Source of the DNA: an uncultured Chlamydiae bacterium
GTDB taxonomy: Bacteria > Chlamydiota > Chlamydiia > Chlamydiales > Parachlamydiaceae
DNA length: 64,000 bases
Assembly (NCBI GenBank): GCA_963754655.1
Contig: CAVWGN010000001.1
Coordinates: forward strand, 800,001-864,000
Reading direction: 5' to 3'
Shown piece after piece: positions 8,927-60,549 of this stretch (position 1 is its first letter; the number at the start of each line of letters is the position of its first letter). Made by a program: the position numbers and the translations under genes. The notes beneath the pieces were generated by a model. It saw nothing but the letters and a program-made list of their open reading frames with translations, ran no database searches and was not told the DNA's origin.

Positions 8927-9254
8927 AGCACTCTTAATGTGAAATTATGCTCTTTATTAGTTCTATAATTTAAATGAGAATTATTTACTAGATGGCTTAG
9001 AAATTTGATGGAAATAACTCCCATCCCTTGAATCCTGAATAGAATGCTCTGGCATTGGTTTGCATAATGTGAGGAAATAAGTCTAAATTTAGAGGGATCA
9101 ATCCAAATTGCTAAAGCAAAGCGAAAAGCTTAAATTTATTGAAGGTAGCTTGAGCAATTACGATAATGAAGCGGCTATCAATATTGCTTTTTGATAAGCA
9201 TATTTTCTTAAGTTCTGGTACACTATAAGAGTTTTAAAAACCAAGAAGGGAAGG

Positions 9255-10238
9255 ATGACTGAACTTACAAATCCATGCCCGTGTTGTAGCATGAAAGAAT
9301 ATGATAAGTGTTGTAAGCTTTTTCATGAAGGCATCCTACCAGAAAATGCGCTTCAGCTAATGCGTTCGAGATATTCAGCTTATGTTTTAAATATTCCCGA
9401 TTATATTTTAGCCACCACCCATCCAGCAAGTCCACAATATTCCGAAAATAAATTTTCTTGGAAACGCAGTATCTCTCAATTTTCGAGAACCTCTTCATTT
9501 CATAAACTTGAAATCCTTGAGTTTAAGGAAAATAAAACTTTAGCTACTGTAACTTTCACAGCTTATTTATCACAAGGATCTCATGACGCTACTTTTACAG
9601 AGAGGAGTTACTTTGAAAAAATCAATAATCGGTGGTTATATCGTGGTGGGCAATTAGCTCAAGGTCATGTCCCCAATTTTATTACGAATAGTCAACTAAG
9701 ACTCTTGCCATTAGCCTATTATGGTGATCCTATTTTAAGAAAAAAAGCTGAACCAGTTAATGAAATTACAAGCGACATTAAAAAACTCGTAGAAGAAATG
9801 ATTGAAACAATGGATGCCTGTGATGGTATTGGTCTAGCAGCTCCTCAAATTCATCATTCCATTAAATTGTTTGTTATTCGTACTCCTATTGAAATTGATC
9901 AAGATAATTTTGAACCTGGTGAAATTAAGGTTTTTATTAATCCTATACTCTCTTTGCCTAGTGAAGAAATATGGCAAGCTTCTGAAGGATGCCTTTCTAT
10001 TCCGACCGTGCGATTTTTAGTTGAACGTCCAAAAGAAGTGACAGTAGAATATACCTCTCTTGAGGGAAAAAGAGTAAAACAGAGAGTTTCAGGTTGGGAA
10101 GCTAGAGTGATTATGCATGAAAATGATCATATCGAGGGAGTTCTTTTTATCGATCGATTAAATCCAGAAGAACAATCCAAGCTGGTGCCTTTTCTACAAA
10201 ATTTAGAAAAAAGAATTCATGATGGTAGAGCACTTTAA
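9255..10238 (+). CDS. def: YchJ/SEC-C domain fused to peptide deformylase
   Basis: N-terminal CPCxSxxxYxxCC and LMRSRYSAY (YchJ); C-terminal GIGLAAPQ, EGCLS, HENDH (PDF motifs). Confidence 0.9.
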   Translation: MTELTNPCPCCSMKEYDKCCKLFHEGILPENALQLMRSRYSAYVLNIPDYILATTHPASPQYSENKFSWKRSISQFSRTSSFHKLEILEFKENKTLATVTFTAYLSQGSHDATFTERSYFEKINNRWLYRGGQLAQGHVPNFITNSQLRLLPLAYYGDPILRKKAEPVNEITSDIKKLVEEMIETMDACDGIGLAAPQIHHSIKLFVIRTPIEIDQDNFEPGEIKVFINPILSLPSEEIWQASEGCLSIPTVRFLVERPKEVTVEYTSLEGKRVKQRVSGWEARVIMHENDHIEGVLFIDRLNPEEQSKLVPFLQNLEKRIHDGRAL

Positions 10239-10267
10239 GACTTTCTATTGTCTACTTATCTTTTTAC

Positions 10268-10400
10268 TCACTTAGCTCCTCGCCTTTACCTTCTGGAACG
10301 ATGAGTTCTTCATCTCTCACTTGCCTTAAAACTAGACGAATGGTGTCTCTGTTAACAGATGAGCAGGCTTGTTCTATGTCCGAGATAGAAAAAGGATCTA
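10268..10400 (-). pseudogene. Fic-family pseudogene, C-terminal HTH fragment
   Basis: Minus strand reads DPFSISDIEQACSSVNRDTIRLVLRQVRDEELIVPEGKG then frameshifted GAK*; joins in frame with the 11816-12015 fragment. Confidence 0.7.
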
Positions 10401-10969
10401 GTACTCAACCACATTAGTTTTATGTATTTAGACTGCTTCAAAGCCCCGGGGCTAGGGTGTTAATTTTGTGCAAAAAAATGAGCTTTATTTTTCACAATAA
10501 TTGGCATAGTTAAATTGAAGGTCGCATGTTTATGCCGTCCTTTCAGGACTCGATGTCTTTTTGATAGAACCCAGGCCTCCGCTTCGCTGCGACCTGGGCT
10601 GTAACATGACGGCCCTTCAGGCCTTAACAAGAGATGTTTAAGTCTCTCTTCTATAGTCTCTAAATCATCTTTTTGTTAAGGCCTGAAGGGCCGTCATGTT
10701 ACAGCCCAGGTCGCAGCGAAGCGGAGGCCTGGGTTCTATCAAAAAGACATCGAGTCCTGAAAGGACGGCATAAACATGCGACCTTCAATTTAACTATGCC
10801 AATTATTGTGAAAAATAAAGCTCATTTTTTTGCACAAAATTAACACCCTAGCCCCGGGGTTGAATTGGCGTAAGTGGGTCCATATTTGCTAATATTGATC
10901 CACTTACGCCAATTCAACCCCGGGGCTTTGAAGCAGTTCCAATGAGCAAAAACTAATGTGGTTGAGTAT
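10401..10969. mobile_element. Palindromic MITE-like element A (TA duplication) carrying nested element B
   Basis: Ends GTACTCAACCACATTAGTTTT / AAAACTAATGTGGTTGAGTAT; internal CTGCTTCAAAGCCCCGGGG / CCCCGGGGCTTTGAAGCAG inverted repeat; interrupts the Fic remnant at CTAG. Confidence 0.85.
10455..10848. mobile_element. Palindromic element B (about 177-bp arms, about 40-bp spacer) containing REP-like motifs
   Basis: GGGTGTTAATTTTGTGCAAAA...TTTTGCACAAAATTAACACCC; arms read as exact reverse complements; CCCCGGGG on both flanks. Confidence 0.9.
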
Positions 10970-10971
10970 TA

Positions 10972-11815
10972 GGGAGCGTACCTAAAAGATTAACCATTGT
11001 ATAATACAAGCGATCGTCAACATTCCTGCATAATTTTGAGCTTTCATTTCGTATCTTATTCCAATACGCCTAAATCGTTTTATAAACTGAAAAAAATTTT
11101 CTACCAAGCAACGCTCTCTGTAGATATGTTTATCATGTTCAATTAGTTCAGCTCTTGATACTTTGCTGGGTATGATTGCTTGACTTCCCATCTTTTCTAT
11201 AAAATTTCTGATTTCATTTGAGTCGTAAGCTTTATCAGCTATAACATTTTGTGGATTTTTTCCACTGAGTAAAAGCTTCATTTGAGTGCTCTCGTGTACT
11301 TGACCTTCTGTCAAGATAAAATCAATACAACGACCTAATCCATCTGTTACTGCATGAATTTTTGTGATTGTTCCGGCCCTTGATTTTCCCATGGCTTCTT
11401 CGGCTTTTTTTTTATCCTACAAGCATCTTGATGCGCTTCAACAATTGAGCTGTCTACAGAGTAATTTTCTTCGTCAATTTCATCTTTTAAAGCTTGCCAA
11501 ATCGTTTGCCAGATTCCAGCCTTTGTCCATCGATTAAAGCGATTATAACATGTGCTCCAAGGACCATACTTGGGTGGTAGATCCCTCCCTCCAAGCGGCT
11601 CCTGTTCTTAAAATCCAAATAATGCCTTCTAAAATCTTACGATGAGGCCGACTTGGTCTGCCCCAATATCCTCGTTCTTTTGGCAATAAAGGTTTTATTT
11701 TTATCCATCTTTCATGAGTTAATACTATCCTACTCATTCAAATTTCCCCCTTGTTTTATCAGAGAAAATTATAAATCATAAGAGTTATTATTTTAAATCT
11801 TTTAGGTACGCTCCC
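10972..11815 (-). mobile_element. IS5-family element (IS-A), copy 1; transposase disrupted by a 4-bp duplication near 11585
   Basis: 20-bp TIR GGGAGCGTACCTAAAAGATT, TA flanks; orfA WILRTGAAWR, orfB ADKAYDS and ERCLVENFF; A-run frameshift site near 11410. Confidence 0.93.
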
Positions 11816-12015
11816 TAGCATATTCTCTATTGTTAAAAGAATGTAGTGAGCTTTATTACCTTTTCCTGTTGTTAAACTGTCCAATCTACTTTAAAATCTT
11901 TATAAGCCTTTAAAAGAACGCCTCAAAAATAAGTCATCCAAGGCATCAGGTTATGTTTCCCTTGATACCATTCTTGAGAACTCTTTTCTAAATTTTCATA
12001 TTAACTCTCTTTCGA
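11816..12015 (-). pseudogene. Fic-family pseudogene fragment (upstream part of 10268-10400)
   Basis: SKES*YENLEKSSQEWYQGKHNLMPWMTYF*GVLLKAYKDF then frameshift to LDSLTTGKGNKAHYILLTIENML; resembles Fic C-terminal regions. Confidence 0.7.
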
Positions 12016-12271
12016 CAGTGGAAGTAGGTCAAGTGCAAAATCCAGCATATACGTGATGAAATGCTGCAAAGAATGGTTTAAGAAAAGTCCTGCGGGATTT
12101 AAATTAGTCATAAAAACTCTTCTTAACTTTGGTTTCTGTTCTCCCTCTATCATATTTTGATATTCGCAATGAAAGAAATTATCGAAATATGTTTAATCTA
12201 GAATTTATAACACAAATTTTTTATAATCAGCCTTTAATTAATCAAATCCAATATAAAGGAAATAAATTTTT

Positions 12272-13426
12272 ATGAAAAAGCGGATAATAACTTTTATTTT
12301 TCTTTTTTGTGTGCAGTTTTATTTAATTTATTCTGCAGAAAAAGAGGCATATCTGGTTAATATTGAAAAAGCATTAGAGGCTTGTCATTTTAATGAAAAC
12401 TTTGAAACTTTAACGAATTCTAATCTTCGAGAGGAGATAAAAGAGCTTTTTCTCAGAATTTATGAAAATGAAAAAAATTATCCTGATTTTATTCAATGTA
12501 TAACAGCTCAAGATTCTCTTTTCTTTGCTTATCAAGTAATTGCGAAAGAGCTTTATCGCAAGCTTTATGGCATGCCAAGAGATGATTTTGAATTTTTGCG
12601 ATTTCCTACACAAAATCTTTTAAAATCTAGAGAAGAATTTTTCTTGCAATATCCTTCTCTTATTCTTTCTAACGAAGAACTGGCTAAAGAATTTAAGACT
12701 GCGCCAGATAAGTTAGAAGAGGCTTTCAACATATATGAAAAACAAGATGAAGAAAATTATTTAAGAATTTCAAGAGGAGAAGAAGAAACGCATAATGAAC
12801 TGGACGATGATGATTATGAGGAAGATGAAGAAACACTCCCTCGATTTCAAATAAATGATACTATGGCAGAAATTAGCAAAGAACTTCTTTCAGTAAACTT
12901 TACTATGGAAACATATCGTCCCTTAGATTCCGCTCTTTTTGTATTTCTTTCAGGCAATTCAGTAAGCCTTGCTTCATTATCTGATGATCAAGAAGAGTAT
13001 AAAGAAAAATTCACTAAAATTTTACATGAGCTTTTTGATTCTCTTTTTCTTCCGAAAGAAAAGCTTACTGAGTGTTTAGAGAAACTAATTGACAAAGCGC
13101 CTCGCTCTAAATTTGGTATCATCAATCAAATCTTTATTCCTAAAGAAAATATAACAAATCATATGTATCTATCTTTTGGAGGAGGTTTTCTTCATTCCGT
13201 TTATGATTCCAAATTTGAAGAAAGTTATAGCGAATTTCAGAATAATAGGCAGGAAGAATATTTTAGAACATTTAGAAATTTTCAAGCTCGCGTCATTGCG
13301 GGTTCTCTTTTTGAAAATTCCCAAGTCAAGATTTTACGCTATACACTTATTCCAAAAGAAACAGAAGCGCAATATGAGACAATTGTTAGAGATGCAATTG
13401 ATGAGCTCTTAACGTCTATATATTAA
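12272..13426 (+). CDS. Hypothetical exported acidic protein
   Basis: 384-aa ORF with MKKR + hydrophobic signal peptide. Confidence 0.75.
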   Translation: MKKRIITFIFLFCVQFYLIYSAEKEAYLVNIEKALEACHFNENFETLTNSNLREEIKELFLRIYENEKNYPDFIQCITAQDSLFFAYQVIAKELYRKLYGMPRDDFEFLRFPTQNLLKSREEFFLQYPSLILSNEELAKEFKTAPDKLEEAFNIYEKQDEENYLRISRGEEETHNELDDDDYEEDEETLPRFQINDTMAEISKELLSVNFTMETYRPLDSALFVFLSGNSVSLASLSDDQEEYKEKFTKILHELFDSLFLPKEKLTECLEKLIDKAPRSKFGIINQIFIPKENITNHMYLSFGGGFLHSVYDSKFEESYSEFQNNRQEEYFRTFRNFQARVIAGSLFENSQVKILRYTLIPKETEAQYETIVRDAIDELLTSIY

Positions 13427-30793: not shown

Positions 30794-31432
30794 CCAGTAC
30801 TCCATTACACTAGTTTTTGCCTATTGGGAGCGCTTGAAAAGCTCCCGCGGTTGAATTGGGATGAGATGATTCTCTTGTAGTCCTTCAGACTACATGACGA
30901 GGGCTAATCTAACCCAGGGCCAGGTGTTCATTTTGTGCAAAAATGAGCTTTATTTTTCACAATAATTGGCATAGTTGAATTGAAGGTCGCATGTTTATGC
31001 CGTCTTTTCAGGACTCGATGTCTTTTTGATAGAACCCAGGCCTCCGCTTCGCTTCGACCTGGGCTGTAACATGACGGCCCTTCAGGCCTTAACAAGAGAT
31101 GTTTAAGCCCCTCTTCTATAGTCTCTAAATAGTTTTTTGTTAAGGCCTGAAGGGCCGGCCCTTCAGGCCTTAACAAGAGATGTTTAAGTCCCTCTTCTAT
31201 AGTCCCTAAATCATCTTTTTGTTAGGCCTGAAGGGCCGTCATGTTACAGCCCAGGTCGCAGCGAAGCGGAGGCCTGGGTTCTATCAAAAAGACATCGAGT
31301 CCTGAAAGGACGGCATAAACATGCGACCTTCAATTCAACTATGCCAATTGCTCATTTTTGCACAAAATGAACACCCTAGCCCGGGCTTTGAAGCACTCCC
31401 AATAGGCTAAAATTAATGTAATGAATTACTAA
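30794..31432. mobile_element. Diverged element A with element B (30923-31376) nested in its right arm
   Basis: AGTACTCCATTACACTAGTTTTTGCCTATTGGGAG...CTCCCAATAGGCTAAAATTAATGTAATGAATTACT; B copy has a tandemly duplicated central unit. Confidence 0.85.
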
Positions 31433-44646: not shown

Positions 44647-45004
44647 CTGGGAAGACATGTCATCGCTTTCCATTTAAATGGAAAGAGGAAAGTCTGGACT
44701 TCGCAGGAGAGGATACCAGTGAAAGACTGGGGGCCGCAAGGCTACGGAAAGTATAACAGAAAGTACTCCGCTGCCTAATTTCGGTTAGGCAGACAGGGTG
44801 AAATGCCAGGCTTTAAGAGCTTGGCCTGATTTGAGGAGACTCAAACGGCGATAAACCCTATCCGAAGCAAGACCGAAAATGAGCCATCCTGTTCTCCGCA
44901 GGGCTCAAGAAGTGTCGCTTGAGAATGTTGGTGACAACATTCCTAGAAGAATGATGACAGGCTAATGATCTTAGCTCACAGAATCCGGCTTACCGTCTTC
45001 CCAG
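44647..45004 (+). ncRNA. rnpB: RNase P RNA (type A)
   Basis: GAGGAAAGTCTGGAC and ACAGAATCCGGCTTA conserved P4 halves; CTGGGAAGAC/GTCTTCCCAG P1 helix. Confidence 0.96.
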
Positions 45005-45023
45005 ATTTTTTCATTCTGAAATT

Positions 45024-45963
45024 CTAGTACTCAACCACACTAGTTTTAGCCTATTGGGGCTGCTTCAAAGCCCCGGGTTAGGGTGTTCATTTTGTGCAAA
45101 AAATGAGCTTTATTTTTCACAATAATTGGCATAGTTGAATTGAAGGTCGCATGTTTATGCCGTCCTTTCAGGACTCGATGTCTTTTTGATAGAACCCAGG
45201 CCTCCGCTTCGCTGCGACCTGGGGCGTGTTTGAAAAACATTACCAATGTGTGATATAAATTATAATAAACGCAATTATAACCACTCCTCTAAATATTTTT
45301 CCTAACTTATCGTAACGAGTAGCAATTCGTCTAAAAGTTTTTAGTTTTTGGAAAAAATTCTCCACAACCTTTCTTTTTTTATACAAACGCTTGCTATAGG
45401 GAATTTCATCAGTTCTCTTTGGGTGACTTGGAATGACAGCTCGTTCCTTTCTTTTCATTAAATAGTATCTAATTTCATCTGTATCATAAGTTAGATCTGC
45501 TATAACATTTCTTGCTCGTTTCCCATTTAATAGAGATTTAGCAAATAAATTATCATTTCTATTTCCGGGAGCAATTTTTAATTTTAATGGTTGCCCTTCA
45601 GCATTAACTACAACATGAATTCTTGTTGACCAACCACCTTGTGTCTTTCCAATTCCATTAAATGTTTTTCCTCCAAAACCTCCCATTGCATTTTGATGTA
45701 CTTTAACACTTGTAGAATCAACATGACGGCCCTTCAGGCCTAACAAAAAGATGATTTAGGGACTATAGAAGAGGGACCTAAACATCCCTTGTTAAGGCCT
45801 GAAGGGCCGTTATGTTACAGCCCAGGTCGCAGCGAAGCGGAGGCCTGGGTTCTATCAAAAAGACATCGAGTCCTGAAAGGACGGCATAAACATGCGACCT
45901 TCAATTTAACTATGCCAATTATTGTGAAAAATAAAGCTCATTTTTTGCACAAAATGAACACCC
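45024..45963. mobile_element. Element A left arm + element B (45081-45963) interrupted by a truncated IS
   Basis: CTAGTACTCAACCACACTAGTTTT...GCTTCAAAGCCCCGGG, then B arms matching 10455-10848. Confidence 0.85.
45222..45721 (-). mobile_element. Truncated IS5-family element (IS-B), 3' half only
   Basis: Nearly identical to 59619-60118; one TIR GGGCGTGTTTGAAAAAC; RRIATRYDK motif. Confidence 0.9.
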
Positions 45964-46001
45964 TAACCCCGGGTGGGATGAGAAAACAAGGGCTAAAAAC
46001 C

Positions 46002-57992: not shown

Positions 57993-58270
57993 ATAAATAC
58001 CTAATAAAATTTGTAATTGAATATTAATCCATTAGTTGATTTATAATATTTGGTTAAACAGTTTTTTTCAACTCATTTCGAAAATCATAGATAATCTCTT
58101 AGAACGATTTAACTAGCATTTTAATTAACTATTCCTAAAATTGCTTGAACTTCCAACATGGAAGGATTATGAATTTCAAGTTATATATTAGCAAGTTTTT
58201 ACGCTCAAAATTTAGTCTTTTTGTTGTTCCACTTTTTCTAATTTTATTTGCGCTTCAGATTTCTATTCTA

Positions 58271-59109
58271 GGGAGCGTACCTAAAAGATTTAAAATAATA
58301 ACTCTTATGATTTATAATTTTCTCTGATAAAACAAGGGGGAAATTTGAATGAGTAGGATAGTATTAACTAATGAAAGATGGATAAAAATAAAACCTTTAT
58401 TGCCAAAAGAACGAGGATATTGGGGCAGACCAAGTCGGCCTCATCGTAAGATTTTAGAAGGCATTATTTGGATTTTAAGAACAGGAGCCGCTTGGAGGGA
58501 TCTACCACCCAAGTATGGTCCTTGGAGCACATGTTATAATCGCTTTAATCGATGGACAAAGGCTGGAATCTGGCAAACGATTTGGCAAGCTTTAAAAGAT
58601 GAAATTGACGAAGAAAATTACTCTGTAGACAGCTCAATTGTTGAAGCGCATCAAGATGCTTGTAGGATAAAAAAAAAGCCGAAGAAGCCATGGGAAAATC
58701 AAGGGCCGGAACAATCACAAAAATTCATGCAGTAACAGATGGATTAGGTCGTTGTATTGATTTTATCTTGACAGAAGGTCAAGTACACGAGAGCACTCAA
58801 ATGAAGCTTTTACTCAGTGGAAAAAATCCACAAATGTTATAGCTGATAAAGCTTACGACTCAAATGAAATCAGAAATTTTATAGAAAAGATGGGAAGTCA
58901 AGCAGTCATACCCAGCAAAGTATCAAGAGCTGAACTAATTGAACATGATAAACATATCTACAGAGAGCGTTGCTTGGTAGAAAATTTTTTTCAGTTTATA
59001 AAACGATTTAGGCGTATTGGAATAAGATACGAAATGAAAGCTCAAAATTATGCAGGAATGTTGACGATCGCTTGTATTATACAATGGTTAATCTTTTAGG
59101 TACGCTCCC
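58271..59109 (+). mobile_element. IS5-family element (IS-A), copy 2; orfB has a 1-bp deletion near 58832
   Basis: Same 20-bp TIRs, CTAG/TA flanks, near identical to 10972-11815. Confidence 0.93.
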
Positions 59110-59155
59110 TAGTACTCAACCACACTAGTTTTGCCCATTGGGACTGCTTCAAAGC
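59109..59155. repeat. Left arm of element A abutting IS-A
   Basis: CTAGTACTCAACCACACTAGTTTTGCCCATTGGGACTGCTTCAAAGC. Confidence 0.8.
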
Positions 59156-59271
59156 TTCAATGTGGAATGATAAAACAAAAAAATATTTAACAACTAATTA
59201 TTAGAATGGTTTTCCTTCTATTTTAAATTAGGTTAGCTTTTTAAAAGAGATTCTTTTAACTGATGGCTCAA

Positions 59272-60549
59272 AATCCAGGGGTTTTTTATTAAAAAATTGA
59301 CACTTGCAGCCCTTCGAGGCTGACAGCAAATTGATAATTTCGGACTATACAATTTATTTTAACTGGTCTTGAGTATATTGTGAGTGGTTTAAAAGTACAA
59401 AAGCCCCAGAAGGCAAGAAATTAACAAAGAACTGTTTTTGGGCTTGATACTTGTTTAGTCAAATTAATATACCAGGTCTGTAAAAGATTTTAGAGGCACT
59501 TTTCCCAAAAATGGCGAGAAAAATATCCTAGGTTATTGTACTTTTAGATCAAGGTCTACTCCTATTGCAAGCTAAGATTCCCTGCCTCAGCCTGAAGGGC
59601 TGTAAGTGCAAAAGCCCAGGGCGTGTTTGAAAAACATTACCAATGTGTGATATAAATTATAATAAACGCAATTATAACCACTCCTCTAAATATTTTTCCT
59701 AACTTATCGTAACGAGTAGCAATTCGTCTAAAAGTTTTTAGTTTTTGGAAAAAATTCTCCACAACCTTTCTTTTTTTATACAAACGCTTGCTATAGGGAA
59801 TTTCATCAGTTCTCTTTGGGTGACTTGGAATGACAGCTCGTTCCTTTCTTTTCATTAAATAGTATCTAATTTCATCTGTATCATAAGCTAGATCTGCTAT
59901 AACATTTTTTGCTCGTTTCCCATTTAATAGAGATTTAGCAAATAAATTATCATTTCTATTTCCAGGAGCAATTTTTACTTTTAATGGTTGCCCTTCAGCA
60001 TTAACTACAACATGAATTCTTGTTGACCAACCACCTTGTGTCTTTCCAATTCCATTAAATGTTTTTCCTCCAAAACCTCCCATTGCATTTTGATGTACTT
60101 TAACACTTGTAGAATCAATAATATGTGATTCGTGGGATGCATTTTTTTTTCAAAACACTCCAAATTTTTGACCAAGTTCCATTTAAGGTCCAGTTATGCA
60201 TTCTTGAATAGATCGTTTGCCAGTGGCCAAATTCAGGGGGCATATCTCTCCAAGGAGCTCCCGTTCTTATAGACCATAAAATCCCTTCTATTACCAACCG
60301 ATCATTTTTTCTAGGTCTTCCCTGTTTACCTGTTTGCGAAGGTAATAATGGACTTAGCTTCTCCCAGTCCTTATCTTTTAAAAACATTCTAGTCATAAAC
60401 ACCTCCTATGGGTCCCTACAACTATTATTATATCATAAATAATCTTTTTAAAACACGCCCCAGGGCAACGCCCTGGGGTTGAGTAAGTTGTGTCATGCAG
60501 CCTGAAGGGCTGCAAGTGTCAAATTTTTTTAATAAAAACTTCCTGGATT
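59272..60549. mobile_element. Element C: inverted arms enclosing REP-like repeats and an intact IS-B
   Basis: 59272-59322 (ATCCAGG...TGACACTTGCAGCCCTTC) is inverse to 60498-60549. Confidence 0.7.
59619..60460 (-). mobile_element. IS5-family element (IS-B), apparently intact, orfA/orfB with A-run frameshift site
   Basis: 21-bp imperfect TIRs GGGCGTGTTT(G/T)AAAA(A/G)..., CA duplication; RTGAPWRD, DSTSVKVH, ADLAYD, RRIATRYDK. Confidence 0.93.

Follow-up and report, generated by a model that had tools for sequence, protein, structure and literature searches.

Nested mobile elements and matching palindrome arms in a decayed Fic gene of an uncultured Parachlamydiaceae bacterium

We analyzed a 64,000-nucleotide stretch of the genome of an uncultured Chlamydiae bacterium of the family Parachlamydiaceae (the window), in which several repeat elements lie inside one another in the remnant of a Fic-family gene. 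A miniature transposable element with inverted repeats (a MITE), called element A here, interrupts the remnant; element B, a 400-bp near-perfect palindrome, sits inside A; and an IS5-family insertion sequence (IS) abuts the right end of A. We consider the locus to be, probably, a stack of target-specific insertions in a dead Fic gene that was later reshaped by copying between palindrome arms. The genome (G000, the source genome) comprises 3.16 Mb in two contigs with 38.8% G+C, and the window is C1:800001-864000. Coordinates without a prefix are window positions and those prefixed C1: are genome positions. The layout was obtained by direct reading of the sequence and an inverted-repeat scan, and consists of the following features.

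10264-10400, minus strand: downstream half of the decayed Fic-family gene with its C-terminal part (...DPFSISDIEQAC...stop), up to the C-TA-G target, whose TA is 10399-10400
10401-10969, no strand: element A, a MITE with TA/TA flanks in a CTAG context
10443-10451, no strand: GCCCCGGGG, left copy of the site duplicated around B
10452-10851, no strand: element B, a 400-bp near-perfect palindrome, C-TAGGGTGTT...AACACCCTA-G
10529-10774, no strand: B core, two mirror-image copies of a three-hairpin module on either side of the 42-nt loop (10631-10672)
10851-10859, no strand: GCCCCGGGG, right copy of the duplicated site
10860-10917, no strand: A's own 58-nt core hairpin, followed by the second CCCCGGGG at 10918-10925
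10972-11815, minus strand: IS5-family IS, 844 bp, with a two-frame transposase (DUF4096 + DDE_Tnp_1), between TA 10970-71 (common to the right end of A) and TA 11816-17
11818-11890, minus strand: upstream half of the Fic remnant (...SRLDSLTTGKGNKAHYILLTIENM), with frames further upstream broken by stops

From left to right, the order is thus C-TA-G (10398-10401), A (10401-10969), TA (10970-71), the IS (10972-11815) and TA (11816-17), then G. Folded as single-stranded DNA, 10400-10968 takes a Y shape of -317 kcal/mol, whereas 100 shuffles give -63.8 +/- 5.4 (z = -47).

The original prediction, made from the window sequence alone, held that removing A, B and the IS restores an in-frame Fic sequence, and it does. 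On the minus strand, the flanks of the stack read ...LLTIENML and DPFSISDIEQAC...stop. A paralogous remnant in the same genome (C1:1712122-1712392) reads ...TIENIIGPFSISDIERAC, with spacing identical to the reconstructed site. A 349-aa gene in the same-genus genome G002 (Pfam Fic, 60.7 bits), which contains HPFQDGNGRTAR, reads ...TIETMIGPFAISDIERAC without interruption, and this answers the proposal to compare empty sites in related genomes. The reconstruction is sound because it is colinear with both the paralogue and the intact G002 gene. The G002 gene lies on another contig than the best def match, so it counts as a homologue and not as a demonstrated orthologous empty site; in G001, also of this genus, def is located where a contig ends. 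The sequence at the locus itself is a remnant, its upstream frames being full of stops. With TA on both sides and an empty site backed by two homologues, A is a real insertion at CTAG with TA duplication, as had been claimed.

Element A is 169 bp long without B and has no open reading frame (ORF). Its ends read GTACTC...GAGTAt (GTACTCAACCAC...GTGGTTGAGTAt). The genome contains 160 A termini, or about 80 A copies, and the termini are preceded by C-TA in 139 cases and by TA in 154. Nine loci were inspected individually: eight are A-only copies, all of which read CTAG/TACTC...GAGTA/CTAG, and the ninth (C1:1816500) consists of two outward-facing A arm pieces. A therefore has the properties of a MITE, being short, non-coding and multi-copy, with terminal inverted repeats, a TA duplication and an empty site. 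Its outer arms pair at 10398-10421/10949-10972 (24 nt, 96%) and 10432-10451/10918-10937 (20 nt, 100%). The segments between them, 10422-10431 and 10938-10948, are unpaired and come from two different arm subtypes, the left arm belonging to the 'GTATTTAGA' subtype and the right arm to the 'CCAATGAGCA' subtype, so the description of A as almost wholly palindromic does not hold. The A terminus was absent from 200 other genomes of the order, three same-genus ones included. The 24-nt terminus matched two loci in metagenome contigs, both with the same GC-rich sequence; neither a second terminus nor a transposase lay within 1.5 kb, the loci showed no likeness to this genome, and we took them as a chance match or relic.

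IS630/Tc1-mariner transposases land in CTAG and duplicate the TA, and A shows the same TA duplication in a CTAG target (139/160 termini). The genome has a resident IS630-family IS with a 335-aa open frame (DDE_3, 75 bits), ends CTAGTACTTTATT...AATAAAGTACTAG, CTA/GTACT at its edge and the same CTAG/TA habit as A; a second copy exists and is broken. This IS is the best candidate for moving A, judged by five common terminal bases and the common target. At C1:1630380-1632840, three elements adjoin one another, with a TA of CTAG common to each pair: the broken IS630-like IS, an IS5-family copy and an A variant of 493 bp.

The 844-bp IS at the right end of A begins GGGAGCG and ends CGCTCCC, with 22-nt inverted ends at 10970-10991/11796-11817. 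It belongs to the IS5 family by its Pfam matches (69.8 and 49.6 bits, DDE_Tnp_1-type and DUF4096) and by the NCBIfam model transpos_IS5_3 (143.7 against a cut-off of 110). All 23 full copies in the genome (95-100% identity) have TA on both sides and a following G, and 20 of them have a preceding C. Sixteen of the 23 abut an A end, where A-terminal CTAGs are about 160 of the 5501 in the genome (binomial P about 5e-20). The earlier statement that the IS sits on A's terminal TA thus describes a rule, not an accident. Both A and the IS begin with G and end with C, so each insertion leaves a CTAG on both of its sides. CTAG is scarce genome-wide, with 5501 sites against about 11100 expected from base composition. 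Another IS5-family copy lies in the window at 58269-59111, where it abuts an A arm (59111-59155) that is followed by a piece of about 110 bp (59163-59274) resembling the end of the TGGGATG-ended IS described below.

Element B is bounded by a different target. Positions 10444-10859 form a perfect palindrome with arms of 187 nt (10444-10630/10673-10859, 100% complementary) and a 42-nt loop, which consists of B (TAGGG...CCCTA, 10453-10850) plus CCCCGGGG on each side. As predicted, A contains B at a site that is duplicated on both sides, GCCCCGGGG occurring at 10443-10451 and again at 10851-10859. The genome has 41 full-length copies of B (380-410 bp between termini), which are 93-100% alike, and of 31 related genomes searched it was this one alone that had full-length B. 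The ends read T(A/G)GGGTG, and essentially every one of the 41 copies is bounded by RCCCNGGGY. A lineage-specific shell makes up the outermost ~77 nt of either side; a shell 30-mer had 0 matches in a collection of genome contigs and a 24-mer had 0 in metagenome contigs, the window's own genome possibly being in neither collection. A-only copies have one CCCCGGGG between arm and core while A+B copies have one on each side of B, which fits insertion of B with duplication of its site.

A genome-wide count of A-only, B-only and A+B loci had been suggested, and all three classes exist. A BLAST census of the parts found 249 loci with A or B pieces: 113 with B pieces and no A piece, 65 with A arms without B (11 of these with the core) and 64 with A-arm and B pieces together. 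The census supports A and B as separate repeat families that occur alone or joined in several arrangements. We consider it very unlikely that A+B is instead a single composite moved as a block by the A ends, with B never entering A independently. Such a composite would suit the number of A+B loci (64/249) and the position of B relative to the core, which is one side in 13 loci and the other, within A, in 3. It is opposed by about eight clean A-only copies, by the 113 loci with B pieces outside A, by the presence of B in other hosts and, in a few cases, in flanks unlike any of the classified repeat modules, and by junction bases that vary between copies. The original prediction named a single fixed junction of B in A as grounds for rejecting independent insertion; we found four junction types (arm-B-arm, arm-B-core, core-B-arm and core-B-core), which contradict the composite as an exclusive explanation.

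The same observations of A alone, B alone and A+B with several junctions argue that the palindromes are not assembly or amplification artefacts (fold-back chimeras), a possibility also raised by the original prediction and one that we find scarcely credible. Nothing speaks positively for it, although no public contig spans the whole of B or the junction between unique flank and A. The multi-copy family structure contradicts it: the 41 full-length B copies occur in different contexts with their own variants each, the same fixed-site IS insertions are found in many B copies, and the inner module of B is present in other genera. Short-read contigs from two public runs also bridge the A-to-B junction (X1 record 1, 10398-10491; X3 record 17, 10398-10614), and these runs may come from the source sample. 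The loose ends of these bridging contigs show IS junctions at the same fixed sites, with IS ends at 10442, 10539/10547 and 10705. Nine public runs matched the locus, none of them recorded as RNA and none with half of the query words, and of the four runs compared, none reached the unique flanks at 10200-10391 or extended across the whole of B.

The search for autonomous elements with GTACTC and GGGTGT termini, also proposed earlier, found candidates whose ends differ from those expected, namely GTACTT for the IS630-family IS described above and TGGGATG for an unclassified IS. The latter is 1853 bp long (TGGGATGAG...CTCATCCCA), has 10 full copies and carries a two-frame transposase with a 470-aa ORF. 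Nine of the 10 copies have a perfect 9-bp direct duplication with the consensus GCCCWGGGC (GCCCAGGGC, GCCCTGGGC, GCTCTGGGC, GCCCAGAGC, GCCCGGGGT, ACCCAGGCC and GCCCCAGGA), and four of the 10 abut a B end. The B shell and this IS therefore use the same target site, RCCCNGGGY matching GCCCWGGGC-like 9-mers. A third shell, TGGGATGAGATGATTCTC...CCCAGGGC (TGGGATGAGATG...), has its first 10 bases in common with the autonomous IS and is placed between an A arm and B in many loci, 30796-31431 among them. The transposase had no match in Pfam, NCBIfam and PDB sequence searches. An 8-bp target duplication is typical of hAT elements; the 9-bp duplication in 9/10 copies speaks against the hAT superfamily for this IS, the candidate affiliations being hAT-like and Mutator/IS256-like.

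B has layers of its own. The arms of its core, 10529-10630/10673-10774, are two inverted copies of a three-hairpin module of about 100 nt around the 42-nt loop. Only positions ~80-320 of B have counterparts elsewhere: with 68-84% identity they occur in three other genera (G015, G016 and G017) and another family (G027). The hairpins differ from genus to genus by compensatory substitutions (GTCC..GGAC vs GCCC..GGGC; GGCC..GGCC vs GACC..GGTC). The 31-nt middle hairpin recurs unchanged in metagenome-assembled genomes (MAGs) of Chlamydiae, in one MAG each of Gemmatales and Planctomycetaceae, and in Limnoglobus roseus, at 55 or more loci. Its presence in both Planctomycetes and Chlamydiae suggests an old repeat or horizontal spread.

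The module is also linked to a transposase. Among the nine Y1_Tnp matches in the genome, the gene at C1:395750-396268 is directly flanked on both sides by the module, in inverted orientation. The module also lies beside the closest relatives of this Y1 gene in G015, G010 and G016, that is, in 4/4 genomes that have a relative of at least 56% identity, this one counted; it was not found beside six more distant Y1 paralogues. At eight loci the Y1 unit is internally deleted, with both modules and the last codons of the gene kept. These deleted units, of about 310 bp with outer ends TTTTTTGAATTAG...CTAATTCAAAAAA, are at C1:234019, 631154, 960462, 972971, 1250643, 1797161, 2325111 and 2793846. Eight deleted copies with common outer ends indicate that the Y1 unit has been mobile as a whole. 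The Y1 protein passes the general IS200/IS605 model only (64.3 against 55).

The original prediction described B as a fold-back element that carries motifs like repetitive extragenic palindromic (REP) sequences. The motifs have a counterpart in a module pair resembling a REPIN (a REP doublet that forms a hairpin), but B cannot be regarded as a single fold-back MITE; instead, a shell encloses modules of the Y1 unit. Since the module is the inverted end of a Y1/HUH transposase gene, the B core can be called REPIN- or TIRtron-like.

The module also resembles an RNA. The Rfam family Acido-Lenti-1 (RF01687) matches at 10570-10624 (plus strand) and 10679-10733 (minus strand), each with 36.4 bits against a gathering score of 37. 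Both matches cover the full 46-position model and fall 0.6 bits under the threshold, and the family is not listed in a gathering-threshold Rfam scan of the whole window. This near-match and the compensatory changes between genera would be expected if the module were a functional structured RNA and the palindromes were kept by selection for RNA pairing, not by mobility. We regard that as highly improbable. Copies of the module stand at dozens to hundreds of sites, in either orientation and also as mirror pairs; the module flanks the Y1 gene in 4/4 genomes with a close relative and is a repeated target of several IS families, and selection on each of 176 base pairs is implausible.

Plain insertion does not account for everything, and several observations weigh against our interpretation or limit it. 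The 9-nt flanks of B are perfect direct repeats in only 1/41 copies (at least 8/9 in 10/41), and perfect mirror images in 13/41 (at least 8/9 in 22/41), for example ACCCAGAGC-B-GCTCTGGGT and GCCCTGGTT-B-AACCAGGGC. With so few direct repeats, a true target duplication at B is visible only where the site itself is palindromic, as in the window, where the 9-bp direct repeat holds if the left end of B includes the extra C. The left and right modules of B differ in many of the 41 copies, so recombination or another process is needed besides insertion. Where A has its core, 13 loci have B on one side of it and 3 have B on the opposite side, still inside A; this placement fits partial composite spread or unequal site quality, and some A+B copies may have spread as composites. 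Eight B copies (raw tally) lie between two A arms without a core, two of their flank pairs looking like another module, and A without the core and without B was not found in the genome census. The candidate partners also fit imperfectly: the IS630-like IS ends in GTACTT and A in GTACTC, the likeness stopping after about five terminal bases; B (T(A/G)GGGTG) and the autonomous IS (TGGGATG) agree at about six of the first eight bases, neither of these two matches being strong; and the Y1 protein scores 22.4 bits with the NCBIfam model REP_Tyr_transpos, below its cut-off of 80, which does not place it in the clade of REP-associated tyrosine transposases (RAYTs).

The arms of B show what such an additional process could be. 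They are perfectly complementary over 176 nt in 18/41 copies, and they differ on average by 1.8 within a copy and by 5.0 between copies. Variant cells are mirrored in both arms in 78/153 cases, against 14.6 +/- 4.1 (maximum 29) in 200 shuffled pairings, and even among variants private to a single B copy 16/40 are mirrored. Taken together, the mirrored flanks, the co-varying arms and the 13-to-3 placement point to arm-to-arm copying and some recombination or composite spread on top of insertion. The autonomous IS is non-palindromic inside and has clean direct duplications, which fits hairpin formation as the driver of mirroring. We did not use the orientation of the B loop as a marker of independent insertions, since recombination between perfect arms can flip the loop. 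In Escherichia coli, SbcCD removes long palindromes. The hairpin nuclease SbcD (TIGR00619) had no match in this genome, which is 96.7% complete, and the same search was positive in 13/14 control genomes; SbcC was not searched. The SbcD result may be linked to the persistence of palindromes here.

Some of these observations would also follow if the locus were a mosaic built by recombination, with modules such as the A arm, A core, TGGGATG shell, B shell and three-hairpin module joined at short CCCNGGG palindromes by site-specific or homologous recombination or template switching, so that the apparent duplications are common junction sites, as in the bacterial interspersed mosaic elements (BIMEs) of enterobacteria. 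The excess of mirrored over direct flanks (13 against 1 perfect, n=41) agrees with this, as do the differing side modules of B (C/D 4, C/other 3, A/other 4, and others, n=41), the single symmetrical core-B-core locus at C1:1372404, tandem arrays of the innermost hairpin (period ~137 bp, 7 copies) and the mirrored arm variants. We nevertheless think a pure mosaic unlikely. The autonomous IS on the same site makes clean 9-bp direct duplications in 9/10 copies, and A-only and A+B copies differ by exactly B and one extra copy of the site. A is a classic TA-duplicating insertion whose empty site is backed by two homologues, and full-length B is 93-100% alike and of fixed length, as expected of a unit that moves as a whole.

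The claim of a hierarchy in which each element is the landing pad for the next can therefore be kept in part. A regenerates CTAG, carries GCCCCGGGG and bears 16 of the 23 IS copies at its ends; the flanks of B, direct in 1/41 copies against mirrored in 13/41, do not follow the scheme. Our preferred account of the stack runs as follows. A, a non-coding MITE, landed in CTAG and duplicated the TA, presumably moved by an IS630-type transposase. The IS5-family IS, also a user of C-TA-G, would have taken the CTAG (here TTAG) at the right end of A; this order of arrival of A and the IS is a proposal. The GCCCCGGGG next to the core hairpin of A fits RCCCNGGGY, the 9-bp site of the autonomous 1.85-kb IS, and B may have entered there, plausibly with the help of that transposase. 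The core of B is a head-to-head pair of the Y1/HUH end module, similar to a REPIN or a dimer of terminal inverted repeats (TIRs), wrapped in the shell. The B arms and adjoining sites would then have been kept or made complementary by intramolecular copying, for which hairpin-templated repair, template switching and spread from a folded single arm are possible routes.

A more speculative extension can be offered only tentatively. Long palindromes might be actively renewed by fold-back or hairpin-templated copying, which would mirror sites and insertions onto the other arm and build multi-storey hairpins. Self-renewing 'safe harbour' sites (CTAG, GCCCWGGGC and three module sites) would then funnel at least seven transposon families into one another and not into genes.

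The original prediction placed the same A+B nesting at two further loci of the window, which have the following layout.

30796-31431, no strand: second nested locus, with A (CCATTAC subtype), a half shell of the TGGGATGAG type, a B in which the innermost hairpin is doubled, and an A arm
45026-45965, no strand: third locus, 18 nt past the RNase P RNA gene, with the A left arm and B split by a truncated IS5-like element at CCTGGG

For both, the earlier description needs correction. At 30796-31431, A contains B together with half of the third shell (TTGGGATGAGATG...CCCAGGGC) and a duplicated innermost hairpin. At 45026-45965, the A left arm is present with B, the right arm is replaced by a TGGGATGAGAAAAC end and B is split. 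The RNase P RNA gene beside this locus is at 44647-45008 (250 bits), and the repeat stack starts 18 nt after the 3' end of this essential RNA gene.

The module within B is itself a target for several ISs, each at a fixed site. An 835-bp IS5-family IS, whose truncated form is found at the third locus, uses CCTGGG. A 1458-bp IS (DUF772 + DDE_Tnp_1) has a fixed module site and duplicates CCTTTCAGG, two IS481-family ISs (1816 and 1265 bp) use AACATG, and the TGGGATG-ended IS uses ACCCAGGCC. These fixed-site insertions recur across many B copies. At C1:1766752-1768400, seven tandem copies of B's innermost hairpin (period ~137 bp) lie between a pair of A arms, and similar arrays are at C1:2994641 and C1:2208414.

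The neighbours of the nested locus are a peptide deformylase gene with a fused YchJ-like domain (9198-10238) on one side and a 386-aa ORF on the other. In the deformylase gene, on the plus strand, a Cys-rich start and a YchJ-like NTF2 domain at the N terminus (86 bits) accompany the peptide deformylase domain (Pfam, 172.9 bits); the arrangement is one stop-to-stop open frame and looks like an unusual fusion. The 386-aa ORF (12266-13426, plus strand) has a signal-like start and an acidic stretch and is without a Pfam match.

A single locus here displays how bacterial transposons whose targets are short palindromes can accumulate one within another, through three separate machineries: one of TA/CTAG type, one that uses GCCCWGGGC and one of the Y1/HUH hairpin kind. 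An Rfam 'RNA motif' that had been an orphan is connected to a repeat associated with a transposase. How near-perfect palindromes of 400-640 bp persist in dozens of copies, and how their arms stay identical, can be studied here in a natural setting. For annotation, such repeats account for many of the disrupted genes and contig breaks in environmental chlamydial genomes. Our literature searches found no paper joining Parachlamydiaceae with miniature inverted-repeat elements, Chlamydiae together with RAYT or REPIN only in a title in one paper's reference list, and for 'nested MITEs' with bacteria only a fungal paper. Each part is of a known kind (MITE, REPIN/TIRtron, REP-targeting IS), and the combination was not found in print.

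Element A resembles the MITEs of IS630/Tc1-mariner elements in being short and non-coding, with inverted ends, TA in CTAG, about 80 copies and an empty site. It differs in having only about five terminal bases in common with the resident IS and in carrying a second target site and nested elements. In the same way, B resembles the Acido-Lenti-1 RNA motif, reportedly described by Weinberg and colleagues in 2010, in that the whole model is matched twice, once per strand. The matches here lie 0.6 bits under the threshold and are part of a transposase-tied mobile repeat, not an isolated RNA gene.

The closest parallels to the B core are REPINs with their RAYTs (Bertels and Rainey, 2011, PMC3116915) and the REPtron and 'TIRtron' systems with TIRYT tyrosine transposases (Di Nocera et al., 2013, PMC3733652), as these sources outline them. 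Like these, the core consists of two inverted structured repeats around a spacer, a Y1/HUH gene is flanked by that repeat in inverted orientation, and dimers and clusters of such repeats are seen. With three hairpins and about 100 nt, the module differs from a REP of 20-40 nt, and the doublet is wrapped in a further shell and lies inside other elements. The Y1 protein is under the NCBIfam REP-associated cut-off (22.4 vs 80), and the Y1 unit, with its eight internally deleted copies, is more like a mobile IS than a domesticated single-copy gene. ISs that target REP sequences are known (Tobes and Pareja, 2006, PMC1525189), as are BIMEs, which are mosaic REP clusters (PMC2817692). In outline, both sources describe features that recur here, with ISs at fixed positions of palindromic repeats and repeats in mosaics with other motifs. 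What sets this locus apart from them is that at least five IS types each have their own fixed site in one module, and that the layering is four deep.

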